DNA from: a virus
Virus record (IMG/VR): IMGVR_UViG_3300025012_000054
Location: 1 to 64,000 of that record
Length of the DNA stretch: 64,000 nucleotides
Direction: 5' to 3' (one strand)
The notes beneath the pieces are model-generated. The model was not told the DNA's origin, made no database searches, and was given only the letters and a program-made list of their open reading frames with translations. Of this stretch, positions 105 through 62,493 are shown in pieces. The translations under genes were made by a program, and so were the position numbers. The first letter of the stretch is position 1. Every line of letters starts with the position of its first letter.

Positions 105-2742
105 ATGACGCTCGAAGAGGCGGATGTCGAATCCAAAAGGCTATATGACGAGATTCTATCTGATGATTTTTGTCCCATTTGTGAATATGGTATTTGCCAC
201 TTTGCCATTGATAAAACGTGGGATGAAATTGTCGTAGAGGCCAAAGATTTGGCTGTGAAAGAGATGAAGAAATTAGAGTCTCATGTTGGAGATTTTTGGG
301 AATACGAAATAGAAGAATTACAAAAAATTATTGATATGTAACACGATAAAAGTTAGATTTCATTAACAGAAAGGAATAACAGATGCCCAAATATAATATC
401 AAGTTAGTAGATCCGCCAACCAATAAAGGCATATTATTTGAAGTAGACGGTACGGAATTAACCGATGTTCCTATCAGATGTTTTGTCCATCATAAAGTCT
501 TTGAAAATGAAATCATGAAATCTTGGATGGTATCGGAATTCTTTTCTGGTATGGCTATGACTTCAGAGTGGCCGACGAAAAACGCAGCCATAGATGCCGG
601 TCATAGGGTATTCGCTAAAATGCAATTGGCAGATATAAAAGAAATTGTAAATGGTCGTGTCAAAATATATGGATACGCTAATACCGATGGAACAGAAAGG
701 AGTAAGAAGAATGGATAGTTTTTACTCACCTGGTTTTGAGGCAAAATATCTCGAAAGATATCAAGAAATAGAATTTAGTGATGATGAACGATCTGTTAGA
801 ATTTTTGACGGTAAGTATATTCACCAGTTTCGCCAGTGGCTAGACAATTTGGATGATGAACTTAACAGGCGCAAGGTTTTGAATACCAATGGCGACCACG
901 AAGCACCAGAAGATATTTATGGTGCAGGAAAAATATCAGATAGTGTTGAATGAAATCAAAGTTTTATTAGGAGGATATAATGGGAATGTTTGTTAGGGGA
1001 TTTCTTGTGGGTGTGACTTGTATGCTTGGTTTTGTTGCTCTTGTACCTACGGCTGAATCTAGGGAATTGACTAGATGTAAAGATGCGGTAATTGCAAATA
1101 TTCCCATTGTTTGGGAAGAAAATTATCCGTTTTGCAAAGTCGAAGTAACAATAAACGGTAAGGTCAAAGAGGTAACGCTTAAAGAGTTTTACGAATATAC
1201 TAAATAAAATCATACTTTTATTAAGGAGAAAAAATGACTGACAGAAGTGTCGATATTACTAAAATAATTTCACAGCTTGTATTAAATGAAATACTTTCTG
1301 GGAAAATCAAAACGCCCAAAGAAATTGAATGGCTAACATCTTACACGACGGAAGCACTATCTAGGATGCTTGCATATGTTATACAAATACAGGAAGAAAA
1401 GATCGACATAAAATCGTGATTTTATTAAGGAGGTATGAATGAACGGAATAATGAACACATTTCCAAATATAAACAAAATAACAGAAGAGATGGCTATTCT
1501 TCAAGAGGGATATGATATTCTTGAATCCTTGTACCTTGCCATGGATTCATACCACCCAGCGATTGATGGAAAACCAGTAGATACTGTTTTAGTAAACAGA
1601 ATGCAGAGGTTGTTTGGGTTTGATGACGGTGAATAAAATGAGGATTCTATTAAGGAGGTAATAATGGAAAAAGATTTTGAGTATAACAGTTTTACAAATG
1701 AAGAACTGGCTAAACTACCAAAATGGGCATTAGAAAAAATTGAGGATTTAACACGAGAGCGAAAAGAATCCGTTAGGGAATTGAACGAATATTTAGATTC
1801 TCAAACTCCATCGTCTTTTTATACGGATGAATTTGCCTGTTTGGGATTAACAGAAAAAGGTACTCCAAATTCTCAAAGACGGTTTTTTCAAACTGATAGA
1901 ATTGAAGCCGATCACAAAGGCGTTCACTTGTCCGTTTATCTTGGTGTAGATGGAATTGAAATTAGTTGGGGGGCAGGAGCTAAACACGGGCGAGACGTTG
2001 CGTTTATTCCCCGAAGCTACCAACACGCATGGCTTATATCAAAAGACAGTATGCGATAGATAATGAAAGGAGTGTTTCATGATACTAGGGCTTTATTTTA
2101 GCGCAGATAAGATTGACCTCATCAAAAACACGTGCAAATTAGAACATTTATTGCTAAGCGATTTTGAACATGATTTCGCCAAAAAACATTTGCTCATGAA
2201 CGCCTATTTGAGAAATAGGGATTTCATAACATATATAAACGCTATGGCTGATAAATTTATTGAAACGGGAACTATATAATAAAAGCGATTTTCATTATAA
2301 AGAAAAGGAGAAAATATGGGAAAAATGTTTGTTGGTGCAATTTGGGGAGCAGTTTTAGTTTTATCCATCTGGGCCTTAACTGTTTATTCTTTAGAAAGTG
2401 ACAGTGCTTTATCTGTGCTTGCCGTGTTTGGTTTGATAGGCTGTGGAGTAGCGCTTGTATGTTTTGTCTTAAAATTGATAATCGATAATCGGGATTAATG
2501 AAACAGGCATTTTATGAGGAGGAATAATGGTTAAATATTTTTGTGATATCTGTAAGAAAGAAGTAAGCAATCCCGCTATGTCTTTAGATATGGCCGGAAA
2601 GGTTTTGTGCCACGAACATTTCTACCAGGCGCGAGAAGCCATGCATAAAACAATTTATACCTATACTAAAGAGGTAACAGAATCACCGTGCGATAATTGC
2701 GATATAGATTATCCCAGTTGCAATAACTGTATCGGTGCATAA
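105..2742 (+). CDS. Run of about 10 short hypothetical phage proteins (105-341, 383-718, ~711-953, 980-1207, 1234-1419, 1439-1636, 1664-2059, 2079-2279, 2316-2498, 2527-2742)
   Basis: Co-oriented ORFs, most with an AGGAG/GGAGG Shine-Dalgarno and separated by the ATRAAA-N6-TTTYAT dyad. No recognisable domains. Confidence 0.75.
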
Positions 2743-2768
2743 AACAAGAGTTTCATGGAGAATAATTT

Positions 2769-3473
2769 ATGAAATATATGGGATCTAAAAATCGTCACGC
2801 CAAAGAACTTTTATCTATCATCCTTAAAGATAGAAAACCCAATCAATATTATGTAGAACCTTTTTGTGGCGGATGTAATCTTATCGACAAAGTATCTGGT
2901 AATAGAATAGCAAACGATATTCACTTTTATTTAATAGAAATGTTTAAGGCTTTGCAAAACGGATGGCAACCGCCCGACAATATTTCAGAAAAAGAATGGT
3001 ACGATATAAAAGACAATAAAGATAAATACGATTCACGGCTAGTTGGTTTTGTTGGTTTCGGGTGTTCTTTTTCTGGCAAATGGTTTGGAGGTTATGCGCG
3101 AGGAAATCAGAACAACGGGCTACCACGCAACTATTGTTCAGAAAGCAAGAGAAATGTTTTGGCGCAAGTCCAAGGATTGCAAGGAATAGAATTTTTTAAT
3201 AAAAATTATTGGGAATTAGAAATACCGCATAACAGCATTGTGTATTGTGATCCCCCTTATGAAAATACCACGAAATACAAAGATTCTTTTGATCATAAAA
3301 AATATTGGGATTGGGTTAGGTTTGTTGCAAGAAGTGGTAGTAAGGTTTATTGTTCGGAATATGTCGCGCCAAATGATTTTGCTTGTGTGTGGTCAAAAAA
3401 GGTTAACAACACGCTAGATTTGAATACTGGTGCAAAACAGGGGTGGGAAAAACTGTTTGTTTTTACACAATGA
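2769..3473 (+). CDS. Dam-like (D12 class) N6-adenine DNA methyltransferase
   Basis: N-terminal KYMGSK, SAM-binding YVEPFCGG, catalytic YCDPPY. Confidence 0.9.
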   Translation: MKYMGSKNRHAKELLSIILKDRKPNQYYVEPFCGGCNLIDKVSGNRIANDIHFYLIEMFKALQNGWQPPDNISEKEWYDIKDNKDKYDSRLVGFVGFGCSFSGKWFGGYARGNQNNGLPRNYCSESKRNVLAQVQGLQGIEFFNKNYWELEIPHNSIVYCDPPYENTTKYKDSFDHKKYWDWVRFVARSGSKVYCSEYVAPNDFACVWSKKVNNTLDLNTGAKQGWEKLFVFTQ

Positions 3474-3499
3474 AAGACGAATTTTATTGAGGAGGTCTT

Positions 3500-4585
3500 A
3501 TGGCAAGGCAATTAGCAAGTATCCAAAAAATTATAAATATTGAACCCATTGAGGGTGCTGACGCTATTGAAAAAGCAACTGTTTTAGGTTGGCAGGTTGT
3601 AATTGCTAAAAAAGACAATTTTAAAATTGGTGATATGGCAATATATATTGAAATTGATTCAATTATGCCAGAAAAACCAGAATATGAATTTCTGCGTCAG
3701 CGTAAGTTTAGAGTGCGTACAATCAAGTTGCGCAATACGATTAGTCAGGGACTAATTCTTCCTTTATCTGTTTTGCCTAAAGGGAACTATCACGAAGGAA
3801 AAGATGTGACAGAACTTCTCGCGGTGAGAAAATATGATCCGCAGGCAGAAATCGAACAACGTTTATTCGATGAAAAAAACGCAAGGGAAAAGAATAAAAT
3901 TAAAAAGTTGTTGGGGAAAATGAAGTGGTATAGAAAACTTTTTGGAAAAAAGAGAGAGGGTTTTCCCTCTTTCATAAAAAAGACGGACGAAGATCGTATT
4001 CAATTATTTCCCGATATTTGCGAAGAAGAAAAAGATACGGCATTTCAAGTAAGCGAAAAAATAGATGGTCAGAGCGGAACATATTTTTTGGTCAAAAGCA
4101 AGGGGTGGTTTGGAAAAACCAAATTTGTTTTTGGGGTGTGCAGTAGAAATCTTTTATTGAGAAAACCCGATAATAGTTCATACTGGTCTATTGCGAGAAA
4201 ATATAATATTGAACAAGTGCTCAAAAACCTTATAGATAAAAGTAATTATGTTATTTTGCAGGGTGAAATTATCGGGACTAATATTCAAGGAAATAAATAT
4301 AAGGTATCGGACTATGAATTCTTTGCTTTCAACTTAATTTTTTCTGACCAAAAGCCAGATAATGATTTGGCAAAAAGCATACTTGAGTGGCACGCAATTA
4401 AGTTTGTACCACTACTTGATAACAACCTCAAATTAAGGTCTACAATTCAAGATATGGTTGAATATTCAAATGGAAAATCTCAAATATCTGACACGTTACG
4501 AGAAGGGGTTGTTGTAAGAAATTACGAAAAGGGAATTAGTTTCAAAATTGTAAGCCCAGAATTTTTATTGAAATATAATGAGTAA
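3500..4585 (+). CDS. ATP-dependent RNA ligase, DRB0094/Rnl2-like, with N-terminal OB-like domain
   Basis: N-terminus MARQLASIQKI..IEPIEGADAIE..GWQVV..YIEIDS; ligase motifs EKIDGQS, QGEIIG, REGVVVR, FKIVS. Confidence 0.88.
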   Translation: MARQLASIQKIINIEPIEGADAIEKATVLGWQVVIAKKDNFKIGDMAIYIEIDSIMPEKPEYEFLRQRKFRVRTIKLRNTISQGLILPLSVLPKGNYHEGKDVTELLAVRKYDPQAEIEQRLFDEKNAREKNKIKKLLGKMKWYRKLFGKKREGFPSFIKKTDEDRIQLFPDICEEEKDTAFQVSEKIDGQSGTYFLVKSKGWFGKTKFVFGVCSRNLLLRKPDNSSYWSIARKYNIEQVLKNLIDKSNYVILQGEIIGTNIQGNKYKVSDYEFFAFNLIFSDQKPDNDLAKSILEWHAIKFVPLLDNNLKLRSTIQDMVEYSNGKSQISDTLREGVVVRNYEKGISFKIVSPEFLLKYNE

Positions 4586-4617
4586 CATAATAAAAGATTC
4601 GTTTCATGGAGTAATTA

Positions 4618-5265
4618 TTGACTAAAATCGTAGCATTTTCAGATATTCATGGTCAAATCAGCAATAAATTAACGCAGTGGTTTTTTGATCATCCTGGCGA
4701 CATATTAATATTTGCTGGAGATATTCAAAAGAATCATTTCGATTACGGCGAAGATTTCCTATTCTGGATATACAATCTACCGTATACCCATAAAGTAATC
4801 ACATTCGGGAACCATGACGGCAATTTTCAAGATATTACAAATACGGCTAAAAAATACGAGGATATTTATATTCTAAACCATGACAGCATAACAATAGATG
4901 GAATAAAAATATTTGCATCACCATATTCTCTACCGTTTAGAGAATGGTGGTTTATGAAAACCGAACAGGAACTAGAGAAATTATACCAACAGATTCCAGA
5001 TGATACCAATATCCTGATTACCCATGGTGCAGCTTTCGGAATATTAGATGAGGCAATAGGTGGACGAGCTACAGGAAGTATTTCCTTGGCTAAAAGAATA
5101 ACAGAATTAAAGAAATTAAAATATCATATCAGCGCCCATATCCACGAATCAGCGGGAAAACTAAAAGTAGGACGGGTAACACATATAAATGCAAGTATCC
5201 TGGATGAGCGATACAGGGTTGTAAATAATCCCGTTATTATCAATTACAGGCAACCTAAGCCTTGA
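4618..5265 (+). CDS. Calcineurin-like metallophosphoesterase
   Basis: Motifs SDIHG, AGD, GNHD, ITHG, AHIHE. TTG start after GGAG. Confidence 0.9.
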   Translation: MTKIVAFSDIHGQISNKLTQWFFDHPGDILIFAGDIQKNHFDYGEDFLFWIYNLPYTHKVITFGNHDGNFQDITNTAKKYEDIYILNHDSITIDGIKIFASPYSLPFREWWFMKTEQELEKLYQQIPDDTNILITHGAAFGILDEAIGGRATGSISLAKRITELKKLKYHISAHIHESAGKLKVGRVTHINASILDERYRVVNNPVIINYRQPKP

Positions 5266-5290
5266 CAAGTAACAGAAATTATGATATAGT
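5262..5290 (+). promoter_or_regulatory. sigma70-type promoter
   Basis: TTGACA (5262-5267), 17 bp, TG-extended TATAGT (5285-5290). Confidence 0.85.
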
Positions 5291-5312
5291 TAGCATTAAG
5301 AAAGGATATCAT

Positions 5313-5684
5313 ATGGGAACGATTGAATTTTACGGCAAGCAAATGGATGATGTAGCCACTCTGAATACCGACACTATATTGGCATACAAAAAAGTTGTAC
5401 CCCATGCTTGTCATTGCGGAAAGCATGAGGATGATTATGTATCTGATTTTGGTGAATGGCAACCTGTTTTAGATCATAATCATACCTGGCAAGTTGTTAC
5501 ACTGCTCGAAAATTTTGGTTATACCGGATATGATTACGACACTGTTTTTTACACATTTTATCTGCAAGTTCCAGAATGTGCAAAACACGGCGAGTTTAAA
5601 TATGAGGGTGATGGGCTAAATTTTGGTCAAGCAGTTTGCAACACTCTGATTAAATTTGCCAGAGATTATAAATTTAGTAAATGA
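5313..5684 (+). CDS. Hypothetical protein (start corrected to ATG 5313)
   Basis: The ORF-track TTG at 5262 is the -35 box. AAGGA SD precedes in-frame ATG 5313. Confidence 0.7.
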   Translation: MGTIEFYGKQMDDVATLNTDTILAYKKVVPHACHCGKHEDDYVSDFGEWQPVLDHNHTWQVVTLLENFGYTGYDYDTVFYTFYLQVPECAKHGEFKYEGDGLNFGQAVCNTLIKFARDYKFSK

Positions 5685-5699
5685 AAGAAGGATTTTATA

Positions 5700-8231
5700 A
5701 TGAAAATTATAAGAGTTAGGAGATACTCTGGACACAAAGGCGGTAGCAATTTTTATCATCACGCTGATCTGTATGCGAATAATGCGAAAGAAGCAATTGC
5801 TAAAGCTAAAACCTGTACCAACTGGCGTTGGATTGATAAATTTGACGAATCAGACACCGATTATGTTAGATACGAATCTCTTGGCGAAATAACCCCAACC
5901 ACAGCCAAGAATCCACAATGAAAGAGAGATTTCGTGATGTATTATAAAATACACTGTATGGCTAAAGACTTTTTAGGAAAACCCGAAATTCTATGTGGAA
6001 CACCTGCTGCTAATTATTTTGCAGTTCACGATCAGGACGTAACGTGTCGAAGATGTAAAAACTCCATGGGCATTATCCATAAAATTCCAAAAAACAAGAT
6101 AATCTCTTGCATAGAATGTGGAGAAAAACATATACACAAAACCTGTTGTAGTAAATTTACTCAGGATTAATAAAAGGATGATTTCATGAGAAATGATTTT
6201 GACTTATCTTGGGGTGATATTATAGATATGTGTCACACTTGGGGCGTTTTTACCAGTCTGTCCTCAATCGTATTCGCAAAGGTTACACCGAAAGACACCC
6301 TTGAAGACCGGCTGACAAAGTTTGAGAAAAAATTATCCGAAACAACAAAGTTTCTAAGCAGTGTTTCAAATCAACTGAGTCAAAATAGTTTTTTAGCAAA
6401 TGCTCCAGACGATATTGTGAAGGGAAGAATTGATCAGTTGATGGAATTAGAAGAAACATATGAGGCGCAGTCTCACTTAGTTGATATGTTGAGATTTGCG
6501 AATCAATATAAATTACAGGAAGGGTGATTTTATGACAAAGATTATTAAGTTTAAACCGAGCTATCGTCTTATAGAAAACTGCAAATATTGCGCATTCTCA
6601 CACTATGAATACAAAAATAAGTGGTCTACGAAATCAAACTATTTTTGTTTACGATTGGCAACTGTTGCGACTATCGATGAGTTGAAAAAATTAAAAATTC
6701 CAGTTTATCAAGGCGATAAGGATGGTAAGTATGTTGACAAATTGACAGGCAATAGTTATGCGTATATTGAAAACCCAGATGAGATTTTGTCGGATTGCCC
6801 TCTGGAAGAATATAATGAAGCAGGAATTTCATGATGTGTAAAATTAAAATAAAACAATTATTGTGTAAACACCCTTCTTTAGAAGAGGTTGTCGCAGTTC
6901 TTTGGGCTCTTATGATTATGATATTGATGGTTTGGGCGCTAGAGAAACCAGTTTCAATAATCTTAATGTGGCTGTTTGGCGTATAAAATAAGTCTTTTAT
7001 AAGGAGAAAAATGAAAAATCTATTTATTATAACACTGTCAGATATTGTTGGGCTTGTATTTCTTGCTCTTATTCTTTTAAGCGCCCTAATTATTTTTGTT
7101 GGATCAAAACTTGAAGAGCGAAAACGCAGGAATCGTAGAAATAAATAAAATGATTCTTTAAAGAGATTGTTGTTGGTATTAGATTTATACACCGATATTG
7201 CCGTAAGAATCTTAGAATTTGTGGAAATGAAAAAAGAAGAAGATAAAATCAGCGTTTCATGAGGAAGTATGAATAAGCCAACAAGAAATCCAGAGTATGA
7301 TAAACAATTAAAAATCTATAATAGTGCGTTTGGTAGGCATCAGTCCATGGGAATAGTTTCAAAAAAAATAACTACCAAAGAAGAAATGCTTGTGGCTTTT
7401 GAACAAATGAAAATCGAATGGGATAAATTGATGGAAATTAATCTGTTTATAGAATGTACGGAATGTGGTGTTGAAAAATCAAAATGTATTGACTGTATTT
7501 ATGCTTTTTACGGTAAATAAAATAGTTGTTTTATGAAGCAGAATAAAAGGAGAAGAAAATGCAAGAATTTTGTAAAGTTAGTAATTTAAATGATTTGCTA
7601 TCGACGCTAGAGTTTTATTATGAGAAATATGGTAATCTTCCAATAGATATAGATTTGAGTTCGGGAAAAGAAGAAGGATGTTATAAGATTGATTCCGTTT
7701 TATATGCCACAGATGAAAAAGGGAACAGGTCAATTAGCTTTATTGTTTGGTAGCATAAAATGATTGTTTCATGAGGAGTGCTATGAATAAATTAGAATGG
7801 ATTGAAGAACTTGCTAGGATTAGCAAAATGTCAAAGCAGGAACGCCTTGCTTATGATCTTGAGCAGATACCAAAGATCCACTGGAGCGACGATGAAGAAT
7901 ATGTGGTATTCGTTGATCGTAAACTTGATGTTTTAATTGGTTCTTTGATGGAGTTTTTATCATAAAACAATTCTTTTATGTGGTAGATAAAATATTAGTT
8001 TTATGAGGTGAAAAAATGGAAATCATTCAATACAGCAACTATATAAATTTCAACCCAGACTGGTTTGATCCAACCATAGAAAAAGTATTTTTCGTTGAAA
8101 ATTTTGATGATAAATATGTGCGTGGTTTTAAATGGAATTATAATAATAACAATAAAATTCCAGTTAGAATATCTATGAAGAAATTCTTATCTGAATATCA
8201 ACCAAAACCAGAATTGGATTTTGGTGAATGA
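5700..8231 (+). CDS. Run of short hypothetical proteins (5700-5921, 5934-6170, ~6532-6834, 7269-7520, 7559-7753, 7771-7965, 8016-8231, plus sub-60-aa ORFs near 6.83-7.15 kb)
   Basis: Co-oriented ORFs, mostly bounded by dyad sites and SD motifs. Several are Cys-rich. Confidence 0.7.
6186..6527 (+). CDS. Small protein carrying a valyl-tRNA synthetase C-terminal coiled-coil (tRNA-binding arm)-like segment
   Basis: RLTKFEKKLSET..LSSVSNQLSQNSFLANAPDDIVKGRIDQLMELEE resembles the ValRS C-terminal pattern RL.K.....L.N..F..KAP..VV......L.E. Confidence 0.7.
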   Translation: MRNDFDLSWGDIIDMCHTWGVFTSLSSIVFAKVTPKDTLEDRLTKFEKKLSETTKFLSSVSNQLSQNSFLANAPDDIVKGRIDQLMELEETYEAQSHLVDMLRFANQYKLQEG

Positions 8232-8293
8232 AATCAACATTTCAAGTGAATGAACTTCGCGAAAACAATACTTTATTCGCGACAATGAATAAC

Positions 8294-8322
8294 TTGACAA
8301 AATATCAAAATTGTGGTAATAT
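8294..8322 (+). promoter_or_regulatory. sigma70-type promoter
   Basis: TTGACA (8294-8299), 17 bp ending TGTGG, TAATAT (8317-8322). Confidence 0.8.
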
Positions 8323-8366
8323 TATAACGTAATAAAATTATACTTTCATGAGGAGACAATAGTTCA

Positions 8367-8951
8367 ATGACTTTAATTATCGGCGTAGATTTTACTTTGA
8401 GCAAAGATAAATATCTTTATATGGCTGGTGACAAATGCGGGAGCGACGGATTTACAAAAGATTTATATGTAAAACCCAAAATTTTTAAAAGGGATGATCT
8501 GGCGTTTGGGTATACATCTTCTTTTCGCATGGGTCAAATTTTAGAATATGCTAAAATCTCTAAAGATCTGCCAGATTGGAAAGAAGAAAAGAACGTATAT
8601 ACTTCCTTTGTGGATTGGGCTAAAACAGCCATGAAAGACGGCGGTTATCTACAAGACGATAAGGGCGTAGTCAGGGGAGGCAATTTTATTTTTTATAATG
8701 GAAAATCTTTATATGAAGTCCAAAACGATTTTTCCATCCTAGTTCCAGAAGACGGATTATTAGCCGTTGGTTCTGGTGAATATCATGCAAAAGCAATTAT
8801 GCGCACTTATATGGCCCTGGTCAAAAAGGAACAAATCAAGTTTGATATAGGCTTAATGGTATCGTTGGTTTATGATACCGTTAGTTCGCTAGTAACATCT
8901 GTTTCTAAAGAACATGATTTGTTTGATTTATATAAACCTGATAAAAATTAA
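8367..8951 (+). CDS. Ntn-hydrolase (proteasome beta/HslV-like) peptidase
   Basis: Thr2 nucleophile position (MTLIIG), MAGD, KIF, and AVGSG motif typical of the proteasome-subunit fold. Confidence 0.7.
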   Translation: MTLIIGVDFTLSKDKYLYMAGDKCGSDGFTKDLYVKPKIFKRDDLAFGYTSSFRMGQILEYAKISKDLPDWKEEKNVYTSFVDWAKTAMKDGGYLQDDKGVVRGGNFIFYNGKSLYEVQNDFSILVPEDGLLAVGSGEYHAKAIMRTYMALVKKEQIKFDIGLMVSLVYDTVSSLVTSVSKEHDLFDLYKPDKN

Positions 8952-8968
8952 TTTTACAAGGAGATAAT

Positions 8969-10429
8969 ATGGATAAAATCAGGCGATGGAATAAACTTGC
9001 CGTGTGGCTTGCCATAAGTATTATAGACGTTGATGGCAAAACTCGCGACTATGGAACAGCGACGGATCATCGAGATTTGAGACAGCAATTGGAAACTTTA
9101 AAGTTGGTGCTGGATAAAATGCAAGAAATTGAAAAAGAAATTCCAGAGCCAGACAGTGAGTGACTAAGATGAAATATGAAGACCGCCACGATTTATTTCC
9201 GGACACCGTGATTATATCCTATCCTTTTCGATGGGGAGGGCAAAGAGGAGATGTTTGGATGTGGATGGCAGAAATGAACGGTGAGGTTTTAGACTATCAC
9301 AGCAAAGACATATTGATCATAAATGCTATTCTTGCAAATGAAAAATATGTGGTTTTACGAGTTCATAAAGATAAAGATATGACAATTACAGTAGTGGAAC
9401 ATAATGAAAACTAGATTTCATGAGGAGACACAATGTTGATGCAAGACATAAAAGCATATTGCCCTTTCTGTGAAAAAGAACAAACTTTTACCTATAAAGT
9501 TTATCTGAAGGATATTCACGGTGGCGACTATGAATATGGAACGCAACCTGGTTGTACCGTTGAGGTCGAATGGACTTGCCAAGACGGTTGGATTATAGAA
9601 ACAAAAGAATTTGATCTATAACATAAAATTATCATTTTATAAAGGAGAAAAATGAGAACTGAACTATTGGTCAAGCTAGAAAAAAACTTGTTAGAGTTTC
9701 TTGACGAGGCAAGCGGAGAATATTTTATACAAGTCAAAGAAGAACAGGTTCTTGCCAAAATTGTCGCAGATATTATAGAATCTATAAACAACGCTTATGA
9801 TACTGGCATAGAAGACGAATCATCATAATAAAATGCACATTTCATAAAGGAGAGATATGAGTGAACTAGATGAAGTTGTAAAACAGGGAGTTGAGGGATT
9901 CCTGGAATTTATACATGAACACGGATATTTCGTTTATCGTAATCGTTCGGGCGATATGCTTATTTCTGAGGATGGTAGTATTGCCACTAAAGAGACAATG
10001 AATGAGCTAATTGCTAAGTTTTTGGAAAGGCAGTAGAAGATGAAATTCGTACAAAAACTAATTGATGATACCAATAAAGGTGATTGGGACTTTAAATGGA
10101 AATATAGCGATGGATCACAAACATATACATTTAATCAACCCAAGCATTATCTCAACGGCTTGAATTTTTCGCTGGCAGCCAACAAGAAATTGCTGATATT
10201 CCCCAATGGCTATGGTCTGGAAACCACTCTGCTTGAAAATCTCAAGAAGGCTATTGATGTATCCTTGGAACGCACGGTAGATGAAAGTATGCGGCTATAT
10301 GTTGAGGGCAAAGAAATGACTCAGGAGCAAGAAGACCTGGCTGCTGAGCAGGAAGCGATGAAAGCCGCCGGTAAACCTGAAGAAAAGAAAGAACCACAAG
10401 ATAAGAAGAAAACAGTAAAGCCAGAGTAG
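8969..10429 (+). CDS. Run of short hypothetical proteins (8969-9163, 9160-9414, 9433-9621, 9652-9828, 9857-10036, 10040-10429)
   Basis: 9652-9828 (58 aa) and 9857-10036 (59 aa) fall below the track cut-off but have AAGGAG SDs and clean stops. Confidence 0.7.
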
Positions 10430-10458
10430 ATAAAATCTTTATTTTATGAGGTAAAAAA

Positions 10459-42095: not shown

Positions 42096-42098
42096 CAA

Positions 42099-42176: not shown

Positions 42177-42229
42177 CAAAATGTAGTAAAATGTGATTTT
42201 ATGCAGTAAGTTAAAATAAGGATGGACGC

Positions 42230-42550: not shown

Positions 42551-42576
42551 TGTTAATGAAATTGTGCTTTTATTAA

Positions 42577-42750: not shown

Positions 42751-42775
42751 AAAGTCATATATGGAAGGAGATAAT

Positions 42776-43918: not shown

Positions 43919-43944
43919 TGAAATTAGGCTTCTATCGGAGGTGA

Positions 43945-45034: not shown

Positions 45035-45062
45035 TAAAATATGTCATTCATGAGGTTGTAAT

Positions 45063-45452: not shown

Positions 45453-45521
45453 CAACATAAAATAGTATTTTTATTAGGTTGCACATATTTGTAGTAAGTC
45501 TATTTATAAAAGGAGAAATAA

Positions 45522-46463: not shown

Positions 46464-46464
46464 T

Positions 46465-46875: not shown

Positions 46876-46896
46876 TAAGTTGTAGTTGCTATTAAT

Positions 46897-46925
46897 AAGG
46901 CGGAGCATAAAACCCTCCGCCTTTT
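46897..46925 (+). terminator. Intrinsic terminator-like hairpin
   Basis: AAGGCGGAG (46897-46905) / CTCCGCCTT (46915-46923), ending in a short T run. Confidence 0.65.
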
Positions 46926-46937
46926 AAAATAGAAAGG

Positions 46938-48884: not shown

Positions 48885-48887
48885 TAG

Positions 48888-49673: not shown

Positions 49674-49674
49674 A

Positions 49675-52893: not shown

Positions 52894-53096
52894 TGGCAGA
52901 ATATCAATATCGATGTAAGGAATGTAAAACTGTTTTTACCGTTATAAAATCTATAACGGATGTAATTATTACATTTTGTCCCAGTTGTAAAAGCGATAAA
53001 GTACAGCAAAAATACTTTGCGCCTCATGTTCTGTATAAAGGAAAAGGTTTCTATAAAACAGATAATACCAAAAAGCCCTTGACAGAAACCGAATAA
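52893..53096 (+). CDS. FmdB-like zinc-ribbon protein
   Basis: YQYRCKEC...CPSC...YKGKGFYKTD. Confidence 0.82.
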   Translation: MAEYQYRCKECKTVFTVIKSITDVIITFCPSCKSDKVQQKYFAPHVLYKGKGFYKTDNTKKPLTETE

Positions 53097-53107
53097 TGTG
53101 GTAAACT
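53079..53107 (+). promoter_or_regulatory. sigma70-type promoter
   Basis: TTGACA (53079-53084), 17 bp ending TGTGG, TAAACT (53102-53107). Confidence 0.78.
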
Positions 53108-53531
53108 TTAGATAATAAAATAAGACTTTTATGTGGAGGAAAATGAAAGCAGACGACATTAAACTAAAATATGATTCTATGGAAGAACTAATGGCTGATA
53201 TGAATAATCTCATTGCCATGGGATTTGCCGAAGAAGTTGAAGATCCCAAGACCGGTAAGCCAGGTTATCGCATCACCCCTGCTGGTATCAAGATGTTTCA
53301 ATATTATCAGCAACTACAATCAGGGAAACTAAATTGAAAAAGGATTTTCGAGATAAGGTATTTCAGAAATTGGCTCATAAATTTCCATTGCGCCTGATTT
53401 GGTTCTGCATGTTCGAAGCCCTATCTATGCATCAACGCTTGACAAAGAATGCCAAGCTACCTAGTCAAGTCGGTATGATAGAAGCGATTCATCGCTTAGA
53501 TGAAAAGCGCTTCGATGAGTGGGAATAAATC

Positions 53532-53993
53532 ATGGACATAAAATCGGGCAACGGATACCCTTCTTCTGCTCTATCAAATTTTGCTCCCCATCCATTCGAA
53601 ATCGATGGTGTTAAGTGCTCAAGCATGGAAGGATTTTTACAATCGCTAAAATTTGAAAATCCAGAAATGCAAAAACACGTTTGCACACTCGTGGGGATGC
53701 AGGCAAAATATAAAGGCAAAGATAAGAAATGGTGGAAAACTCAAACTCTCTGGTGGCAAGGCAAAGAAATTGATAGGCACAGCCAAGAGTACCAAGACCT
53801 GCTGGACAGAGCATATAACGAGATTTCTAAAAACACCGGTTTCCAACGTGCTTTGTTGGCTACAAAGGATTCATCCATTACTCATTCTATAGGAAAGTCA
53901 GATGCCAGTCACACAGTCTTGACACAACGAGAATTTTGTGGTAGACTTGAAAAGATAAGAAAAATCCTACAGGATAAAACTAGCGTTTCATGA
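53532..53993 (+). CDS. T4 gp30.3-like protein (NADAR superfamily)
   Basis: DIKS...YPSSALSNFAPHPF.IDG....SMEGFLQSLK...TLWWQG....R.S..YQ.L..AY...F..ALLAT....H. Confidence 0.8.
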   Translation: MDIKSGNGYPSSALSNFAPHPFEIDGVKCSSMEGFLQSLKFENPEMQKHVCTLVGMQAKYKGKDKKWWKTQTLWWQGKEIDRHSQEYQDLLDRAYNEISKNTGFQRALLATKDSSITHSIGKSDASHTVLTQREFCGRLEKIRKILQDKTSVS

Positions 53994-54002
53994 GGTGAAA
54001 AT

Positions 54003-57000
54003 ATGAGATACGCACAAATTCATTCAGGAAATAAACTACATTTAGTCTATGAGCCAGGCGAAGGCGTTGATGATCAGCACCTTGTAAAAGCGGGGTATGT
54101 ATCTGCCCCTCTTTGCGGACAAAAATTCGAGGGCAATTATCGAATGACTATTAATGTTCCTCTTGCCCATGCTTGTAAAAGATGTTTAAAAGTTTATAAT
54201 AAAAGGAATCTTTTATCATGACTGATGACGGAAGTTTGAAATTTGCAATGGTGTTGTGGCTAGACAAACATGATGATCTACTCGAATATGAGGATGTTGA
54301 TATCGTAACCGAAAGCGAATGCGTAAACGAATATTTAGAAATTGAATACGACATTGTTCCTCTGCTAAAAGAATCTCCCGTTATAAAAGATTTGGCTGAT
54401 GGAAAATGGCGTGTTTATATTGAAGGAGAAATGTTTTTTAGTCATGATGATTATCCCGAAGGCGGAACAGAATATGATTACAACACCACGATAAATCTTA
54501 TTACGCCCGAAAAGACTGATGGTTGGATATAATAAAATGATGGTTCTATGTGGTATGGAGTAGTTATGGACAAACTATTTTGGAAATATGACAAAAACTT
54601 AAAGGCATATATCATTTATTATGACAAGCCCTGGCCAAAACCATATGCTGGCGACATTACGGAAGTCTGGCGATTAGCGATGGAGCCAAACCGCTTTAAC
54701 GAACTTACCGTGGACGAAATTGTTCAAGCGCTTAATCACTATAAAATGGTAGTTTCATAATGTGCAATATGTTGACTATTAACGTCATATTTAGGCAATA
54801 AAAGTCAATATGTTGTACGTTATTCGGAGGAATAAAAAATGAATATATGCAGTTGCGATGAATTTAAGAAGAATATGCCAAGAATAGACGGAGCGGTTTC
54901 TAATGCTTGGATTCATGGCTATGAATTGGGAAAAGAATTCGTGTATTTCCGTTATTGCCCATGGTGTAGTAAAAAGATGGTTGATGTATATGTAGGGGAT
55001 AGTGATCATGAGCACGACGATAGGATATTATAATGCCATATGTTAAAAAAGAATTAGACAAGTTACAAGATCATGTTTCTGATTTTGGCTGGGAATTAAA
55101 TTCAGTAGAGTTTGACTTAGATATGCTGCCCGACATCGAAGAACCTTCTGAAATGGAGTTGGCTGAAGCCGACGAGGTAGCGTTGTCATATGCGATTTCG
55201 GCATATTTTAGAAATCATTTTATCGGCTATGACAATAAAGGCGAGCCTAAATGGAATATAGGCAAGAAAAAACAAGCACTATTAAGAAAATTTAGTTAAT
55301 AAAAGCAATGTTTTATGAGGTAAAATATGATTAAATATTTCCACGAATTATCAATAGAAGAATTCGACGAGTTGGTTAAGTCAGGAATGACTTGGAGCGA
55401 ATGTGCTGAAAAATATCCTGCGCCAGAGTGGTGTAGCTATCCCCAAGCAGTTTTAGGCGATTTTGGATGTTGGTCACTCATGTCATTCAAAATAAAAAAC
55501 AGACGGAACTGTATGCTGTGTGAGCATTATATAAAAGTTAATAAAAGATAATTTCATGAGGAAGAAAAATGAAACGTGATAAAAACTGGTGGGCTAAATT
55601 TTCCAAAGAAGAACGATACACAATTTGGTGGTTCGAAAAAAACCAATATAAATCCGCAGGACTTGGTGGAGGTGGATATCTACCTTACGATTGTGGCGAA
55701 TGTGCTGTTTGCGGAAACACTTGCTATATGTATAGTCCTTGCCAAGACTGTTCAAATGAATATGATGCGTTAATTAATAGATCATAAAAGTACAATCTTA
55801 ATGAGGTGCTATGAATAAGGGATATCTTGCTGATCAAAAAACCATGGATATTTGGAACAATATTTTAGATTATAAAAAAGATATGGGTGACGTATCCATA
55901 CAATATCGAAGAACTTGGAATTCGTTTTGCCAAAATCTCATTCACAACGGTAAGAGAGTTGGATGCATTTATATTTTTGGGCTACAAGTAAATCCTCTTG
56001 ATAATCGATTTCATGGATATGTAGCCAGATTTTATATCAACAAAGAATTTAGGCACAGCGGATATGCTTTACAAATGATGCATGACATCATCGCGCATTT
56101 TGGTTTTTGTGTTTTGCACATGACTTCGGTAAGTCCAAACAGAATTGATGGTCTTGCTGATGACAACAGAGAAGAATATCGAAATCGACTTTATAAATTT
56201 TATGAACATTTTGGATTCAAGAGAACCAGCACAACTGCAACCGGAATGATTAGACAATGAAATTTAGATTCTATGAGGTAAAAATGGAAAAGACGTTTAC
56301 ATTAGAAGAAATTAAAAAGGCGTTCTGGCTGGAATTTCATGAAAGTGGAGAACTGTGGTTTCCGTATAGGCATGATGAAGATGATGCCGAAGGAATAAGG
56401 GAAGGCGAACAAGTAACCGAGGAATTTTGGAAAGAGTTTGTTGATTACCTAAGCGTCGATCATCAACAGGACAATGAAATTTAATTTCATCTTGACAGAA
56501 TCGAGATAATGTGGTATAGTTAGTTAATGAAAGGATGATCAATGGATGATTTTGAAAAAGAATTTTATCAGCGCCTAACAAACGATATTGACACATCGTT
56601 ATTGTCTGGATTTGCTACCACATCTGCCGCTGAACCAACGGCTACTCTTACAAAAGATGATTGGTTAAAACTAGTAGAAGATTTTCATAATAAGTATCCT
56701 AAAATGTTAGACGGCATCTATGTTACTACATACGATGTTTTACCAACCAATACCGAAATATATGAAGTGGAAACATTGGATCATAAAAAATATATGTTGA
56801 TGCATTCCGGTGTTTGGGAAAAATTGCTTGAAACACCAGGTATAGTAAAAGAATGGTTGGGGTATCCCACCATGTACGGTATTCCGGTTAAACTCAACGA
56901 CCCCGAACTGATAAAAATTTGGATGGATATTGTTGAAAGAAATTATAATAAGGTGGTTAGCCATGGAGCATGAAGACAAATTTAAAAATCTGAGAAATAG

Positions 57001-60000
57001 TATCGTTGATTTTAAATATATAAGCGCGGAAGAAGCACTAAGCCGTATCATTCTATTATGCGGAGAGGAAGAAGTTATTAATTATTTTTGGACATATTAT
57101 GGACAAAAATTTTTACCGTTTAGCTTCGAAACCTTTCTCGACGAAAATCAGCAACATAAAAGGACTATTTTATGAAGGATATGAAACTATCTACTTTGGA
57201 TAAGATTCTTATGTGGCTTGAAGATATTGCAAGATATATTTATCGCATATCCTGGAAATTATTACATTTGAAATTATATCGAGATCCCGAACAATATGTG
57301 CCAAAAAATACTATCTACTGCTATGAATATACGGGAAACATCGTAACAAAAAATCATATGGCTAGTTTTGGTAAATTAATAGAAAGCAATCCATATCAAA
57401 TGCCAGAAACCAAACCCTGCGTCTTTCATAATTTTTTATGGCACATGGATATCTGTATGCTAGATGGTGGCGACTGTATGATGGATAGTTGTAAGACTTG
57501 TGGTATTAGCGAAGGATGGGAAGATGAGATTCCCAATGATGTTTCTATGCAGGCTATCCAGGAAGCAGACGCAGGGATTGGAACTACTACCGTACACAGC
57601 GTTGACGAACTAATAAAAGCGATGGAGGATTAGAAGATGAATAAGGCGAAATATTTTTTAATCAATGGCGAAAACGTTATTGGTATTGTTTACGAAGATG
57701 AAAAATATGGTAGGACATTGATGATCAGAGAAAACCTTGATCCTAACTTTTCTCTCAAGATTTCAGATATTTTTGGTAATTTCGTTGACGATATTGACCT
57801 GATGAATTTTATCAGTAGTATGGTTCCACAATAGAAGGATAAACCTATGGATTTTTTAGACATCAAAGATGTAGACAGTCTGATACATGCGCTTCAAGTT
57901 CGCCGTCAGCAATATGGTAATCTTCCTGTTCGTATATGTCTGAGCGGAAATACAGAAGAAGGCGATTACGACATTGATGCCGTTCTTTACAGCACAGACG
58001 AAGATGGCGATAAATCAATCGATTTGATTATATGGTAGCGTCTTGATAAAACGTGGATTTCATTATATAAAAAAGGAGAATAAAATGAAAAAACAAAAAG
58101 TAATTGCCACTAAGAATTTTGGTGCTCGTAGCCCCATACTAATGACAGCAGTTGCATATTTATTTCTAGATAAGTTTAATGCTGTTGGATGGGTGTGGGG
58201 AGTTGTTGCCACTTTATTTGTAATACTTTGGATTGGATATTTTGTTACTCTCGCTACAAGTGATCCGGTGGATATTTTTGAAGATAAAAAACCTACATAA
58301 TAAAACACGAATTTTATTATAACGTAAAGGAGAAATAGATATGGGAGCAGATACGGATAGTGGTAATTGCAATATCGATGTAGAATTAGAGAAATTTGCT
58401 GAGTCGCAAGAAGTACGTTTCAAAGAGTTTTTTGACTTTTTATCAGAAGAAAGAATTGTTACTAACAAAGACGTTGCCCTTGAATGGATTTTAGATATTG
58501 GTGTTGACTATGATGGAAAAAGATCTCCAGAAGATTTGATGCAACTAATAGATGAATTACTCGCCTATGCAAAAATAGCATTAGAGAAACCTGAATGAAT
58601 GTTCCGATATGTTTCAAATGCAATTTGAGAATACCTGATTATAAATACCAGATGATACCATTGGAACGACCATATATGAATTTATTTTTTCATATTGATT
58701 GCTACAGACAGATTGAAAATATGGATGATTATTTGAAAGAAAATTCTGAAAGGATATTTGATTATGGGCAACCTACAGGTAAAAGCAATAAGAAGTAGAG
58801 AAAAGAAAAAGATTATTCTTCCCTGGATATTATACGATATTCAATTATTCTTTCGTAGAGTCATACAATTCTTCAAATGGATGCCTACGATTTGGGGAGA
58901 CGTCCAGTGGGATCACTCTTCTATTTTCGACTTGCTACAAAAGAAATTAGAATTAATGCACGAATTTTATTCCGGCGATATTCCTCATATTGCAGATAAA
59001 GATGATGTAGCCCAGGAGATAGAAGACGTGATTGTTATTCTTAGGCGCATCCGAGATAATAGATACCTTCTAGTTGCGTTGGAAGACTTTGACAAAAAAT
59101 ATCCTGATTACAATTGGAATCATTGGATGGACGAAGATGAAAACGGTTATTTGAGAATGGATAAAGATGACGCAGCCGATCAAAAGAAAATGAAGAATAA
59201 AGCATATCGACTATCTGACAAGATGGAAAAAGAAGATTTAGATAACTTATTTATTCTTTTGCGCAAGAATATTCAAAATTGGTGGGACTAGATAAAAGAT
59301 TACTTTCATGAGGTGAATATTGAATAAAAATTCCAACAAATTAAATTTAGATCAATATTATACATCTGAAGAAACTGCCTCCTATTGTCTATCTGTTGCT
59401 CGTAAAGTTCTCAAAAACGAAAAAATCTCGGAAGTAATTGAACCATCTGCTGGCAATGGAGTGTTTAGTAAAAAAATTAAAAATTGTATTGCATATGACA
59501 TTGATCCAAAAGATGAATCTATCCTTCAACAAGATTTTTTACAACTGAACATGCCGTATAAAACAGGCAGACTTTTTATAGGAAATCCTCCTTTTGGCAC
59601 TAGAAATACATTATCTGTAAAATTTTTTAAAAAGTGTATCCAATTAGGTGATTACGTGGCTTTTATTTTACCCATCAGTCAATTAAACAATACTCAACAA
59701 ATGTATGAATTTGATTTAATACACAGCGAAGATTTGGGCGATAAATTTTATACAGATAGGAATCTGCATTGTTGTTTTAATATCTACAAAAAACCAGGCA
59801 ATGGAAATAACCAAAAGAAAAAATACCAGTTCAAGGATTTTAAAGTTACAGAATATCGCCGAGGAGGAAGTTATAAGAAACCAGAAAATTATGACATTGG
59901 GTTTTGTGCTTGGGGACATTTAGGGAAAAAGATAGATTTTGTAGGACAATACGCACAAGAATTATATGTTATTGTATACAATGATAAGTTTAAATCAAAG

Positions 60001-62468
60001 ATATTAGAATTATTAACAGAAGAAAACTTAAAAAATATTAAATCACAGATAAGTACTCCCAAACTACAAGCATGGAGAATTTATGAATATATCAAATCTA
60101 ACATACCTGAAATTATATAATAAAATCACACTTTCATGGAGTAAAATATGACAATTGTTATCTGGATTGCATTAGGAATTCTTGGATGGGTTTTATTAGG
60201 CGCTATGATTTTATCATTTATTGATCATAAAGGCGAACTAGCCATCTGGAAAATGCAAGCACCGTCCTTATTGGTTTTTATTGCTAATTTGTTGTGGCCG
60301 ATTGTGGCGCTATTATATCTGACTAAAAAGGATAAATAATGTATAATTACCTCGCGGATATTATCGACAAATTAGGTGAACCAATTTGGTGGGATTCCGA
60401 AGCAGCTATTCCTAGGTATTGCCAATTCCATCCAGACGAGTTAAATAATATTTATGCCAAGGAAGCCGCATTAATATTAATTGAATGTCAGAATTGTGGG
60501 CATCGATTTAAAATATCAGAAGATTGGGAAATAATGGATGCCGTCCGTAATCGCAAACGCTTATCCGAAAGCATTAAGGAGGGATATACGTTGGGGTACG
60601 CAGATCCACCAAATATTAGATGCTGTGGTTCGGGGCCGACAATGACTTCCAACGTATTAAAAATCTTGGAATTTTGGAAATACGGTGAAGAAACAGGATA
60701 TTATTGGGCAAGATGCCCAGAATTAGAAATAATATTTGAACCATAAAATAAATGTTTCATGAGGTAAATATGGAAAATATAATTATTAGGGGATTCAAAC
60801 AATGTTTGCATTGTGGCGACTATGCTCCATATTCTGATTTTACCCTTGACGACAGAGAATGCGACTGGTGTGTTCGAGAACAGGAAGAAGACGATGAAAG
60901 AAACTATGAACGGCAAGAGTCAATACGAATTGGTGAAACGATTTTATAATAAAAGGATTTTTTTATTACAAAAGGAGATTGTTTATGGTTAAAAGAATGT
61001 TATCATTTTTATGGGGGCTCATGGTTGGTATTTCTATCCTTCAAACCATTCATTATCCAGTCGCCGTATCAGAGGATGGGGCTAACATTGTTGATGGTTG
61101 GAGCTTTTTTTGCTATTCAGTTATTATAGTTTCTTTTGTAACAATATTTATGTTTGCTTTGAAGCATATAGTTGAACATTGGGACGACAAATAAAATGAA
61201 TATTTTATAAGGATAATAAATGAAAAAAATTATATTGATAGTTGCTATATTGTGCGCATTGCTTTGTTCTTGTTCTAAGAATCCACCAGATTTTTGTTAT
61301 GGAGATTCGTTGGGAAAAATTGTTTCATTAGATATGAAGATGGGAGCATTCAATTCTTCAGATTATCTTATCATAAATCTAGATAGTGGTGATCAATATG
61401 TTCTTCCATCCGCTGGAAGAATTCATAGTACAAATGAGTTTTTATTTTATGATAAGGATTGCTCACCACATTATTATATATCAACAGATAGAGAACGATA
61501 AAATAGGTATTTCATAAGGAGATAATATGAGTCAAAGATATGAGGATTCGCTTGATAACCTCGATATAAAAACTGATTTAGAAATGCTACCCCATAGAGG
61601 TCAATTGCCGAAATTAGGTGAACTACCTGAAGGTCATTATTTTGTTTATTGGCGTAATCATACAGATGAATATTACGAAAGTATTGAAACCAAGAGTCGG
61701 GACACAATCAAAAAAGCAGTTGGTGTTTGGAATAAAACCATAAAGAAACTAAATAAAACACTCGTTTCATAAGGAGAACGATATTGATAGGATCAATTCT
61801 TAGTTACGACGACATCTCATTTTTATACGATGAATATTTGAAAACAGAAGATATAAATTTATTCGTCAAAAATACAGATGGCAAATTTAGAGTAAACCGA
61901 TCTGAATTGGAAATGATATGGCAAGCCTTCGATAAGGTTAGCGAATATCATCCGAGAAAGCAGTGGTGGAGCGACTCATGGTAAAATTTTATCACGAACT
62001 CACAATAGGTGAAAGATTCGATATTTATAATATGCGAGTGTCTTGGGACAGGACGGCTAAAAAACATCCACAACCTCCGTGGTGTGGGCACGAGAACGCC
62101 GTTGACGGATTACTGGGATGCGACGATCTGGTGATTCTGGGAACTGTAAAATCAGAAGCAGATTGTGAAAATTGTCCACTTCATAAAGGAGAGAAATTAT
62201 GATTACGCCAAAAGAGGCATATGATCAATCAACTGTGTCGAAAAAAGAAGTGATGGATAGATTTGAAATCGAAAATCCTGAAATTATAGAGAAAATTGAA
62301 ATAGCCATTGACGAAGGCATAAACAGCGGTAAGATCTATACCTATTTTGATTCTATAGGCTATAGTTCGGACAAAGTTAAAGAAATTACCGATTATCTTC
62401 ACTTTCTTGGCTATGATGCAGAGCATAATTTGCAGAGAGAATCTATTTGGATAAATTGGTCACAATAA
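54003..62468 (+). CDS. Run of about 25 short hypothetical proteins in dyad-delimited units
   Basis: Co-oriented ORFs with SD motifs. Several are Cys-rich or membrane/lipoprotein-like (61220-61501 has a signal peptide with LCSC lipobox-like motif). Confidence 0.65.
55811..56260 (+). CDS. GNAT family acetyltransferase
   Basis: FYINKEFRHSGYA (motif A) and LYKFYEHFGF (motif B). Confidence 0.75.
   Translation: MNKGYLADQKTMDIWNNILDYKKDMGDVSIQYRRTWNSFCQNLIHNGKRVGCIYIFGLQVNPLDNRFHGYVARFYINKEFRHSGYALQMMHDIIAHFGFCVLHMTSVSPNRIDGLADDNREEYRNRLYKFYEHFGFKRTSTTATGMIRQ
56492..56520 (+). promoter_or_regulatory. sigma70-type promoter
   Basis: TTGACA (56492-56497), 17 bp ending TGTGG, TATAGT (56515-56520). 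Confidence 0.85.
59320..60120 (+). CDS. N6-adenine DNA methyltransferase
   Basis: LDQYYT, IEPSAGNG.F, AYDIDP, QDFL, IGNPPFG, AFILP. Confidence 0.85.
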   Translation: MNKNSNKLNLDQYYTSEETASYCLSVARKVLKNEKISEVIEPSAGNGVFSKKIKNCIAYDIDPKDESILQQDFLQLNMPYKTGRLFIGNPPFGTRNTLSVKFFKKCIQLGDYVAFILPISQLNNTQQMYEFDLIHSEDLGDKFYTDRNLHCCFNIYKKPGNGNNQKKKYQFKDFKVTEYRRGGSYKKPENYDIGFCAWGHLGKKIDFVGQYAQELYVIVYNDKFKSKILELLTEENLKNIKSQISTPKLQAWRIYEYIKSNIPEII

Positions 62469-62493
62469 AATTTACATTTCATAAGGACATATA

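Follow-up and report, generated by a model that had tools for sequence, protein, structure and literature searches.

Phage genomes are mosaics jointed at gene borders, and the standing explanations for these joints are random illegitimate recombination followed by selection, or conserved linkers. Tyrosine recombinases of the Xer, Cre and Flp kind exchange DNA across a short centre that has to match in both partners; XerA and XerH are single recombinases of this kind that act as homodimers on palindromic arms with a centre of 6 base pairs (bp). The core arms of tyrosine recombinases are generally about 9-13 bp long. To our knowledge, no natural system with mutually incompatible joints across a whole genome has been described. 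Here, we analyse the first 64 kilobases (kb; the window, positions 1 to 64,000) of the 91,455-bp virus record IMGVR_UViG_3300025012_000054 and describe an 18-bp dyad, ATRAAA-N6-TTTYAT, with arms shorter than those of known core sites, that stands at the junctions of its accessory genes and recurs in related phages. With a probability of roughly 0.55, we read these dyads as putative core-type sites of a tyrosine recombinase that need matching 6-bp centres and serve as crossover points between related phages.

The literature on SPbeta, its relatives, Perkons and YonO, as far as it is searchable, yielded no description of these sites. The dyads had been noticed before in the window itself and been likened to integron or pdif cassette sites, at which single genes would be captured and shuffled. 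This original prediction is partly supported by the analysis below, which bears out joints linked to recombination and speaks against cassette capture of the integron or Tn916 style.

An 18-bp dyad at the gene junctions of Bacillota phages

The window holds 62 exact copies of the dyad, whereas in 100 dinucleotide-preserving shuffles the average is 0.29 and no shuffle exceeds 3; with one mismatch permitted there are 18 near-copies on top, where chance would supply about 7. The hand count behind the original prediction (about 61 exact and about 13 near-copies) was thus close, and base composition does not account for it. In five near-copies, at 1633, 39695, 43918, 54532 and 56257, the right arm reads TTCTAT instead of TTTYAT, and its recurrence suggests a tolerated variant or a second class of arm. 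The sites are confined to the early and accessory strand and nearly absent from late genes: the remaining 27 kb of the record, with late genes on the opposite strand, contain merely three.

When genes of the plus strand are called with a simple open-reading-frame rule, an exact site is present in 56 of the 98 accessory junctions of the window and a near site in 10 more. None of the 28 junctions of a glycan operon has one, the lone copy there lying inside an open reading frame, and a replication block has a site in one of its five junctions. Placement at gene junctions and the empty intergenic spaces of the glycan operon, both claimed earlier, are therefore confirmed, and so is the close fit to the preceding gene: the left arm contains the upstream stop codon (TAA or TGA) in 25 of about 60 cases, and the stop ends on the first base of the left arm in 9 further ones. 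The next start codon mostly follows 9-14 nucleotides (nt) past the right arm, and in five cases the centre itself is the ribosome-binding site and the last two bases of the right arm, together with a G, form the ATG.

The centre is invariably six bases long across all exact copies and obeys a symmetric rule, with A very rare at its first position and T very rare at its last. Conservation extends over 6-7 bases per arm, that is, the six of the consensus and a weak preference one base outside. Beyond the 18 bases, the position table of the window contains no strong conservation except a ribosome-binding site one base after the right arm, and no conserved promoter signal was found upstream of the sites in the tables of the window or of the pooled genomes.

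Neither a megablast search nor a scan with polymerase peptide patterns turned up a close relative of the window's phage among the phage and IMG/VR sequences; relatives came to light through a scan of IMG/VR for the dyad followed by a ribosome-binding site. Five phages of 120-180 kb carry 69, 43, 63, 46 and 53 copies of the 18-mer in their whole records, with 0-2 copies of the reversed pattern, and the close relative G001 (51 kb) carries 50. All relatives found by this motif scan encode a single-chain RNA polymerase of the YonO type and are therefore grouped with SPbeta. In G001 this polymerase is encoded at L114:1067-3826 (Pfam RdRP). The 91-kb record lacks the corresponding region and probably represents part of a larger genome, of about 130 kb or more. 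The window also encodes a DNA polymerase of the Pol III alpha type, 37-39% identical to those of Geobacillus E3, Clostridium c-st, Perkons and the Lactococcus 949 group, together with RtcB, an RNA ligase, several methyltransferases, a primase-helicase and an Xer-like recombinase.

At least 15 other large Bacillota phages carry the site 30-90 times, including SPbeta, phi3T, Perkons, Geobacillus E3 and Sophrita. Counted as the 18-mer and as its 16-base core (TRAAA-N6-TTTYA), there are 38 and 52 copies in Perkons, 24 and 42 in Geobacillus E3, 19 and 30 in Sophrita, 15 and 38 in BUCT082, and 14 and 36 in SPbeta; c-st has 14 copies of the 18-mer and phi3T 34 of the core. A first-order Markov model predicts 0.2-1.7 copies of the 18-mer per genome for the cultured phages. 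Enterocloster PMBT24, Thomasclavelia TR-TP1 and Lactococcus 949 have 0, 1 and 2 copies, respectively, and a scan of these three genomes for a substitute over-represented dyad gave nothing comparable. In all genomes examined the sites precede gene starts and lie on the sense strand, -2 to about 50 nt from the start codon.

Unique centres, exchanged flanks and a putative recombinase

The six-base centres were compared on the basis of the 16-base core at 565 sites in ten genomes. Not a single pair of identical centres, in either orientation, occurs within a genome, against 17.8 pairs expected from column shuffles within genomes or 20.8 expected analytically (Poisson probability of zero, about 1e-9). 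This holds for direct pairs (0 versus 9.3) as well as for inverted ones (0 versus 8.7). Pairs that differ by one mismatch are reduced to 0.64 (direct) and 0.75 (inverted) of expectation, a depletion seen at all six centre positions (0.57-0.88) without clear pattern, and pairs with two or more mismatches occur at about 1.0. Between genomes, identical centres are found at the chance rate (161 observed, 143 expected), which indicates that the null model is sound. A replication set of four further records repeats the result, with 0 identical pairs versus 9.1 expected and 99 one-mismatch pairs versus 138.

Palindromic centres are avoided as well: there are 2 instead of 12.8 (ratio 0.16) in the first set and none among 240 in the replication set. 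Part of this is background, as palindromic hexamers are at 0.81 of their expected number over whole genomes and at 0.59 where AAA-N6-TTT occurs away from the sites; the sites go beyond this background, with P of about 0.002-0.02 in the first set taken alone. If two sites of a genome had the same centre, deletions or inversions would follow, and a symmetric centre would have no direction, so that the centre statistics fit recombination sites that depend on matching centres. The identity of the centre thus appears to matter: within a genome the centres do not recur and are rarely symmetric, and relatives keep the same centre in the same place. The original prediction had rightly described a centre fixed at 6 bp and different in nearly every copy, and its comparison with the core site of a tyrosine recombinase agrees with the inverted arms and with centres that are selected like a crossover region. 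It had also invoked the tolerance of Tn916-type integrases for non-identical centres, and here uniqueness within and conservation between genomes indicate the opposite.

Comparison with relatives reveals what lies on the two sides of a conserved centre. The window and G001 have 18 identical centres, all in the same order, of which 12 lack homology on either side beyond 12 nt, 5 have it on one side only and 1 has it on both. These junctions form islands of 18-33 nt of perfect identity, ribosome-binding site included, amid otherwise unrelated DNA. SPbeta and phi3T have 25 colinear centres in common, with a break in homology at the site in 15 and with unrelated flanks around AGACTG, TATTCC and TGCATA, for example; SPbeta and BUCT082 have 24, with a break in 17; isolated exact-match islands in the SPbeta pairs were too noisy for use. 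Upstream of yorE, the SPbeta centre TGATAA (NC_001884, 99497-99514) is the reverse complement of the centre found there in phi3T and BUCT082, the only inverted one among about 25 in common.

Some slots between sites are empty in the window (coordinates of sites, slots and blocks are given without strand). Two sites 7 bases apart, 7962 and 7987 (slot 7962-8004), correspond to places separated by 1.6 kb in G001, where homology is lost within the left arm of site 7962 and picks up again at the left arm of 7987. Likewise, two sites 3 bases apart, 41535 and 41556 (slot 41535-41573), flank a 0.69-kb gene in the relative L071, between the same centres CCCACA and CTAAAA. A third empty slot, at 34779-34821, again consists of two sites 7 bases apart, with a linker that resembles 7980-7986. 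A DNA methylase gene (40507-41538) stands between two sites in the slot 40478-41552; in contigs of two groundwater runs, 40496 is followed, after one extra base, by 41530, such that the methylase gene is lost and both sites are intact. Several joints of population variants, in contigs of four groundwater runs, end at sites; all of these joints are weak contig evidence, with short sides and a likeness threshold of 85%. The 7-base linkers are alike, GTGGTAG at 7980-7986, GAGGTAC at 34797-34803 and, at the variant joint 40496-41530, GTACCAC, which is GTGGTAC in reverse complement; they may be what is left of ribosome-binding sites.

The coincidence between dyads and differences in gene content, expected by the original prediction, is thus seen, although in the SPbeta group it amounts to an enrichment only: breakpoints fall at sites about 2.2 times as often as at gene boundaries. 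The sites are favoured crossover points without being exclusive.

How could such joints work? We infer the following steps from the arrangement and statistics of the sites. A recombinase dimer would sit with one subunit on ATRAAA and the other on TTTYAT; it would cleave the DNA and exchange strands across the 6-bp centre, provided that the centre matches in both partners. Its own asymmetric centre would give each site an address, and the sites of one genome would be inert to each other, which would avoid deletion and inversion. The crossover partner would be the site with the same address in a related phage within the same cell, which may be co-infecting or reside there as a prophage. As the sites fall between the stop codon of one gene and the ribosome-binding site of the next, a crossover there would reassort whole genes or modules intact, in order and in register. 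Repeated crossovers with different partners would leave a conserved scaffold of addresses with variable cargo.

Which enzyme might act on the sites? The record contains two intact genes for Xer-like tyrosine recombinases. The one in the window, at 32125-33051 on the plus strand (Pfam Phage_integrase with a SAM-like N domain), has XerA (4a8e) as its nearest solved relative, and the alignment shows its residues R, HxxR, H and Y. It had been put forward, as 32176-33051, as the enzyme of the dyads, but its distribution does not track them: homologues occur in the site-free PMBT24 and TR-TP1 and are absent from most site-rich genomes, which makes it a poor dedicated enzyme, and probably the wrong one was proposed. 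The second gene lies outside the window in the late module, among tail genes at 80919-81932 on the minus strand, and its SPbeta counterpart is yomM. This late-module recombinase is present in all ten site-rich lineages first examined and in four of five further site-rich records, the single record without it being 56% complete, and it is absent from the site-free relatives PMBT24 and TR-TP1. Its nearest solved relatives are XerA and XerH, IntI4 being a weak match for the phage's recombinases, and all ten members of an alignment of the family have the first Arg, a Lys, the His and the Tyr in common. Judged by sequence and distribution, it would be a better candidate than the window's own enzyme and is the leading one (YomM in SPbeta), to which we would give roughly one chance in three.

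Other sources of a site-specific activity fit less well. When the proteins of 14 genomes were clustered into families with phmmer and one profile round, no DNA-binding family followed the sites, and the best non-recombinase family tracking them was YorM-like and peptidase-like. Host XerC/XerD are unlikely, since the phage arms differ from those of dif, whose inner arms we take to be ATAA-6 bases-TTAT in E. coli, Acinetobacter and B. subtilis. A restriction-like enzyme that cuts the centre to give unique overhangs would fit the uniqueness of the centres, but it lacks a candidate gene and would be hazardous to the phage.

Several findings weigh against matching-centre recombination sites. The 6-7 conserved bases per arm are few compared with the 11-13 in Xer, Cre and Flp sites. 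In the SPbeta group, a site is found within 25 nt of only 16-17% of the ends of homology blocks; by the same measure, gene boundaries reach 7% and random positions 2%. Readable exchange points have no fixed position, some lying within an arm and others up to about 10 nt beyond the site, and recombination between neighbouring sites does not explain the empty pairs. In laboratory hybrids of phi3Ts and SPbeta, ordinary homologous recombination suffices, as the crossovers fell within long stretches of identity: k-mer painting of MT366946-8 and PP526179 places the crossovers in identical blocks of 1.4-18 kb, so that they are not assignable to a site, and four of six edges of these blocks sit on a site. 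As for the enzyme, the late-module recombinase is found throughout the Lactococcus 949 group, which has neither the sites nor another over-represented dyad, and the second catalytic Arg is a Lys in five members of the family (G004, G005, E3, Perkons and SPbeta YomM). A Lys at this position, with the Tyr, the His and the first Arg kept, is an unusual natural variant of a tyrosine recombinase.

An unlikely alternative is that the dyads are operators for one dimeric regulator, of phage or host origin, that blocks or tunes early and accessory genes, in the manner of the stoperators of mycobacteriophage L5 or of SPBRE/MrpR in SPbeta; gene swapping would be a by-product, the dyads being the sole conserved sequence at gene borders. 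An 18-bp dyad with an uncontacted centre has the usual shape of a dimer operator, and the restriction to the early and accessory strand would suit such a role. So would the position between a promoter or a preceding stop codon and the ribosome-binding site; at sigma-A-type promoters, namely the one at 8290-8349 in the window and many early promoters of Perkons, the site stands between the -10 element and the ribosome-binding site. Moreover, MrpR has a tyrosine-recombinase fold and binds a repeated element, so that a recombinase-like protein could act as regulator (PMC10516654). However, operators have no reason to carry unique centres, to be depleted of one-mismatch pairs or to avoid palindromes; the empty adjacent pairs enclose no gene to regulate, and one site per gene inside operons exceeds the needs of a roadblock. 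The absence of a DNA-binding family that follows the sites in 14 genomes also counts against a regulator, and the site of MrpR itself is a different one. A role as regulator-operators in addition to recombination is possible.

Two known regulatory elements of SPbeta were compared with the dyad and rejected. Seven promoter regions have been reported as ChAP-seq peaks of MrpR, the SPbeta master repressor (PMC10516654). The motif we derive from them is AAATACAAAAAATATGTATA-like and unrelated to the dyad. The AAATACAAAAAATATGTATA-like element is found upstream of yorE, aimR, yonT, yonP, yonX, yopV and yopM (NC_001884), usually between the -10 element and the ribosome-binding site. MrpR homologues occur in merely 6 of 10 site-rich lineages. 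YonO starts a single late operon from one site upstream of yonK (PMC5467207), whereas the dyads stand in early and accessory regions.

Conserved linkers for general or short-homology recombination, carried out by a Sak4-like protein and a nuclease or by host RecA without any site-specific enzyme, are a decidedly doubtful explanation of the dyads. Such linkers would agree with the older model of modular exchange and with the promoter-early stem-loop elements of T4-type phages. The phage does encode a Sak4-like annealing protein and a PD-(D/E)XK nuclease, its likely partner in such a route. The scatter of exchange points by about 10 nt around the sites, the inclusion of the ribosome-binding site in the 18-33-nt islands and the origin of the phi3Ts x SPbeta hybrids in long identical blocks would all be natural under short-homology exchange. 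Yet a linker should be one uninterrupted identical stretch, not six plus six fixed bases around an ever-different centre, and known annealing systems handle 18 nt of perfect identity very poorly. Slippage would be rare in that case, and selection against it too weak to have cleared all of the roughly 30 identical pairs expected and one in three of the pairs with a single mismatch; nor does a linker role predict the avoidance of palindromes. A protein dimer is suggested by the strict symmetry of the dyad and by the symmetric rule at the two ends of the centre. It is possible that short-homology exchange operates at the dyads, alone or as a second role.

That the dyads are RNA elements, small hairpins or protein-binding leaders that control translation, processing or stability, is very improbable: in all genomes examined they stand on the sense strand, 0-50 nt before a start codon, and in the window they keep a nearly fixed distance to the ribosome-binding site, which would suit such a role, but that distance varies in other genomes, the R and Y bases combine near independence (pooled over six genomes in gene sense, A/T 86, A/C 63, G/T 43 and G/C 42; in the window, A/C 25, A/T 19, G/T 16 and G/C 5) with the mismatched A-C class second commonest and no compensatory change, 7 of 10 copies are predicted unfolded with a best fold of merely -2.6 kcal/mol, and unique centres and swapped flanks are left unexplained. 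The earlier argument from missing covariation of R and Y, in favour of a double-stranded DNA dyad rather than an RNA hairpin, is upheld by these counts.

Blocks and slots of the window

The sites of the window are gathered in three accessory blocks, in which each 18-bp site spans its start to start+17. The first block (346-10447) has 22 exact sites, which start at 346, 950, 1204, 1408, 2063, 2498, 2739, 3470, 4590, 5681, 6170, 6983, 7243, 7517, 7755, 7962, 7987, 8332, 9404, 9623, 9828 and 10430; for 17 of these 22, G001 has the same centre at the colinear place. A decayed copy with a 5-base centre (2281-2297) has an intact 6-base version at the same junction in G001. At 8290-8349 on the plus strand, a near-consensus sigma-A-type promoter (TTGACA, 17 bases with TG, TAATAT) is followed 9 bases on by site 8332 and then by a ribosome-binding site. 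The promoter and the site are identical in G001 except for one centre base, and the two genes downstream are in opposite order there.

The second block (31440-45474) has 23 exact sites, starting at 31440, 33257, 33464, 34205, 34571, 34779, 34804, 36014, 36866, 37696, 38097, 38271, 38493, 38682, 39096, 40193, 40478, 41535, 41556, 42556, 44496, 44766 and 45457, five of whose centres are colinear in L071, a relative of 4.6 kb. Between site 42556 and the start of rtcB lie about 185 bases (42574-42760) that L071 lacks, rtcB following directly after the site there. The third block (53115-62482) has 16, with starts at 53115, 53974, 54199, 54741, 55299, 57156, 58046, 58300, 59292, 60120, 60743, 60949, 61191, 61498, 61753 and 62465. 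Three paralogues of a phage DNA methyltransferase family (phrog_799, phrog_5172; the same part matched), at 33494-34045, 39153-39695 and 59320-60120, each occupy a slot of their own between sites.

Two further slots hold many genes. The glycan operon fills the 21 kb between sites 10430 and 31440 (10430-31457) without an inner junction site; at its head G001 has the same centre and different first genes. The lone exact site within an open reading frame of this operon (27393-27410) has the centre GTGGTA, found also at 50990 in G001, with homology on the right side only, and it may mark an exchange point within a gene. The replication block lies between sites 45457 and 53115 (45457-53132) and encodes the Sak4-like (AAA_24) single-strand annealing protein (45522-46463, plus strand), the primase-helicase, the PD-(D/E)XK nuclease (48888-49673, plus strand) and Pol III alpha. 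YorG of the same block in SPbeta is annotated as Sak4-like.

Relation to known systems

If the proposed mechanism is true, these phages have a dedicated mechanism for mosaicism that keeps the genome safe from self-scrambling. An addressed array of crossover points would be a third mechanism beside illegitimate recombination and conserved linkers, by which large sets of accessory genes are exchanged without breaking genes or gene order. Tentatively, and at a little short of even odds, we propose for SPbeta-like and related large Bacillota phages a natural genome-wide set of 40-90 mutually incompatible sites, one at almost every border of an accessory gene, at which a phage tyrosine recombinase reassorts genes position-for-position between co-resident genomes. 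Since SPbeta and phi3T grow on Bacillus subtilis 168, the idea is directly testable by standard genetics. If the enzyme is found, the many natural orthogonal 18-bp sites could provide a toolkit for ordered DNA assembly and cassette exchange.

Among repeated elements of temperate phages, the stoperators of cluster A mycobacteriophages and the SPBRE sites of MrpR resemble the dyads in that many copies of a short site occupy short intergenic gaps. Stoperators, however, are asymmetric 13-mers bound by a monomeric repressor, and SPBRE has another sequence and about 10 copies at promoters; neither has a variable centre. The promoter-early stem-loop (PeSL) elements of T4-type phages, reportedly described by Arbiol et al. 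in 2010, are likewise short repeated intergenic elements that flank small accessory genes and mark gene shuffling between relatives. They are longer, combine a promoter with a stable stem-loop and probably recombine homologously between like copies, whereas the phage sites have neither promoter nor stable fold and their centres are unlike.

Integrons and pdif modules were the models of the original prediction. Integron attC and attI are tyrosine-recombinase sites that separate single, mostly promoterless genes, as the dyads may do. In contrast, attC sites measure 57-141 bp, fold as single strands and have differing arms, and cassettes move as circles, while the phage sites are 18 bp long and unfolded. 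An integron array is headed by an integrase, attI and a common promoter, whereas the phage has no attI-like head, no long attC and no IntI-type integrase, both of its recombinases being Xer-like. Nothing indicates capture or excised single-gene circles, and the empty adjacent pairs differ from the product expected of excision between two sites, which leaves the capture model unsupported. On Acinetobacter plasmids, pdif sites of XerC/XerD bound modules that occur in varied contexts in related replicons, much like the slots described here. They are 28 bp long, with distinct XerC and XerD arms in alternating orientation, and are used by host enzymes; the arms of the phage sites are identical and 6 bp long, with no paired XerC/XerD arms, and pdif-style sites are therefore not what the window contains.

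The dif sites of XerA and of Helicobacter XerH come closer, with a homodimeric Xer enzyme, inverted arms and a 6-bp centre, and both phage recombinases have XerA as nearest solved relative. Such dif sites differ in occurring once per replicon, with 11-bp arms, for dimer resolution, whereas the phage has dozens of short-arm sites at gene junctions. Heterospecific lox and FRT sets, engineered for Cre and Flp, have palindromic arms and a short asymmetric centre and recombine only with sites of the same centre; sites in one molecule are mutually inert, and exchange with a partner that carries the same set is ordered. They are laboratory designs with 13-bp arms, 8-bp spacers and few sites, whereas the phages carry 40-90 natural sites with 6-bp arms and a putative enzyme. 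By analogy, the nearest functional counterpart of the proposed system is cassette exchange with heterospecific lox/FRT sites, and the nearest geometry of enzyme and site is that of single-recombinase Xer/dif.

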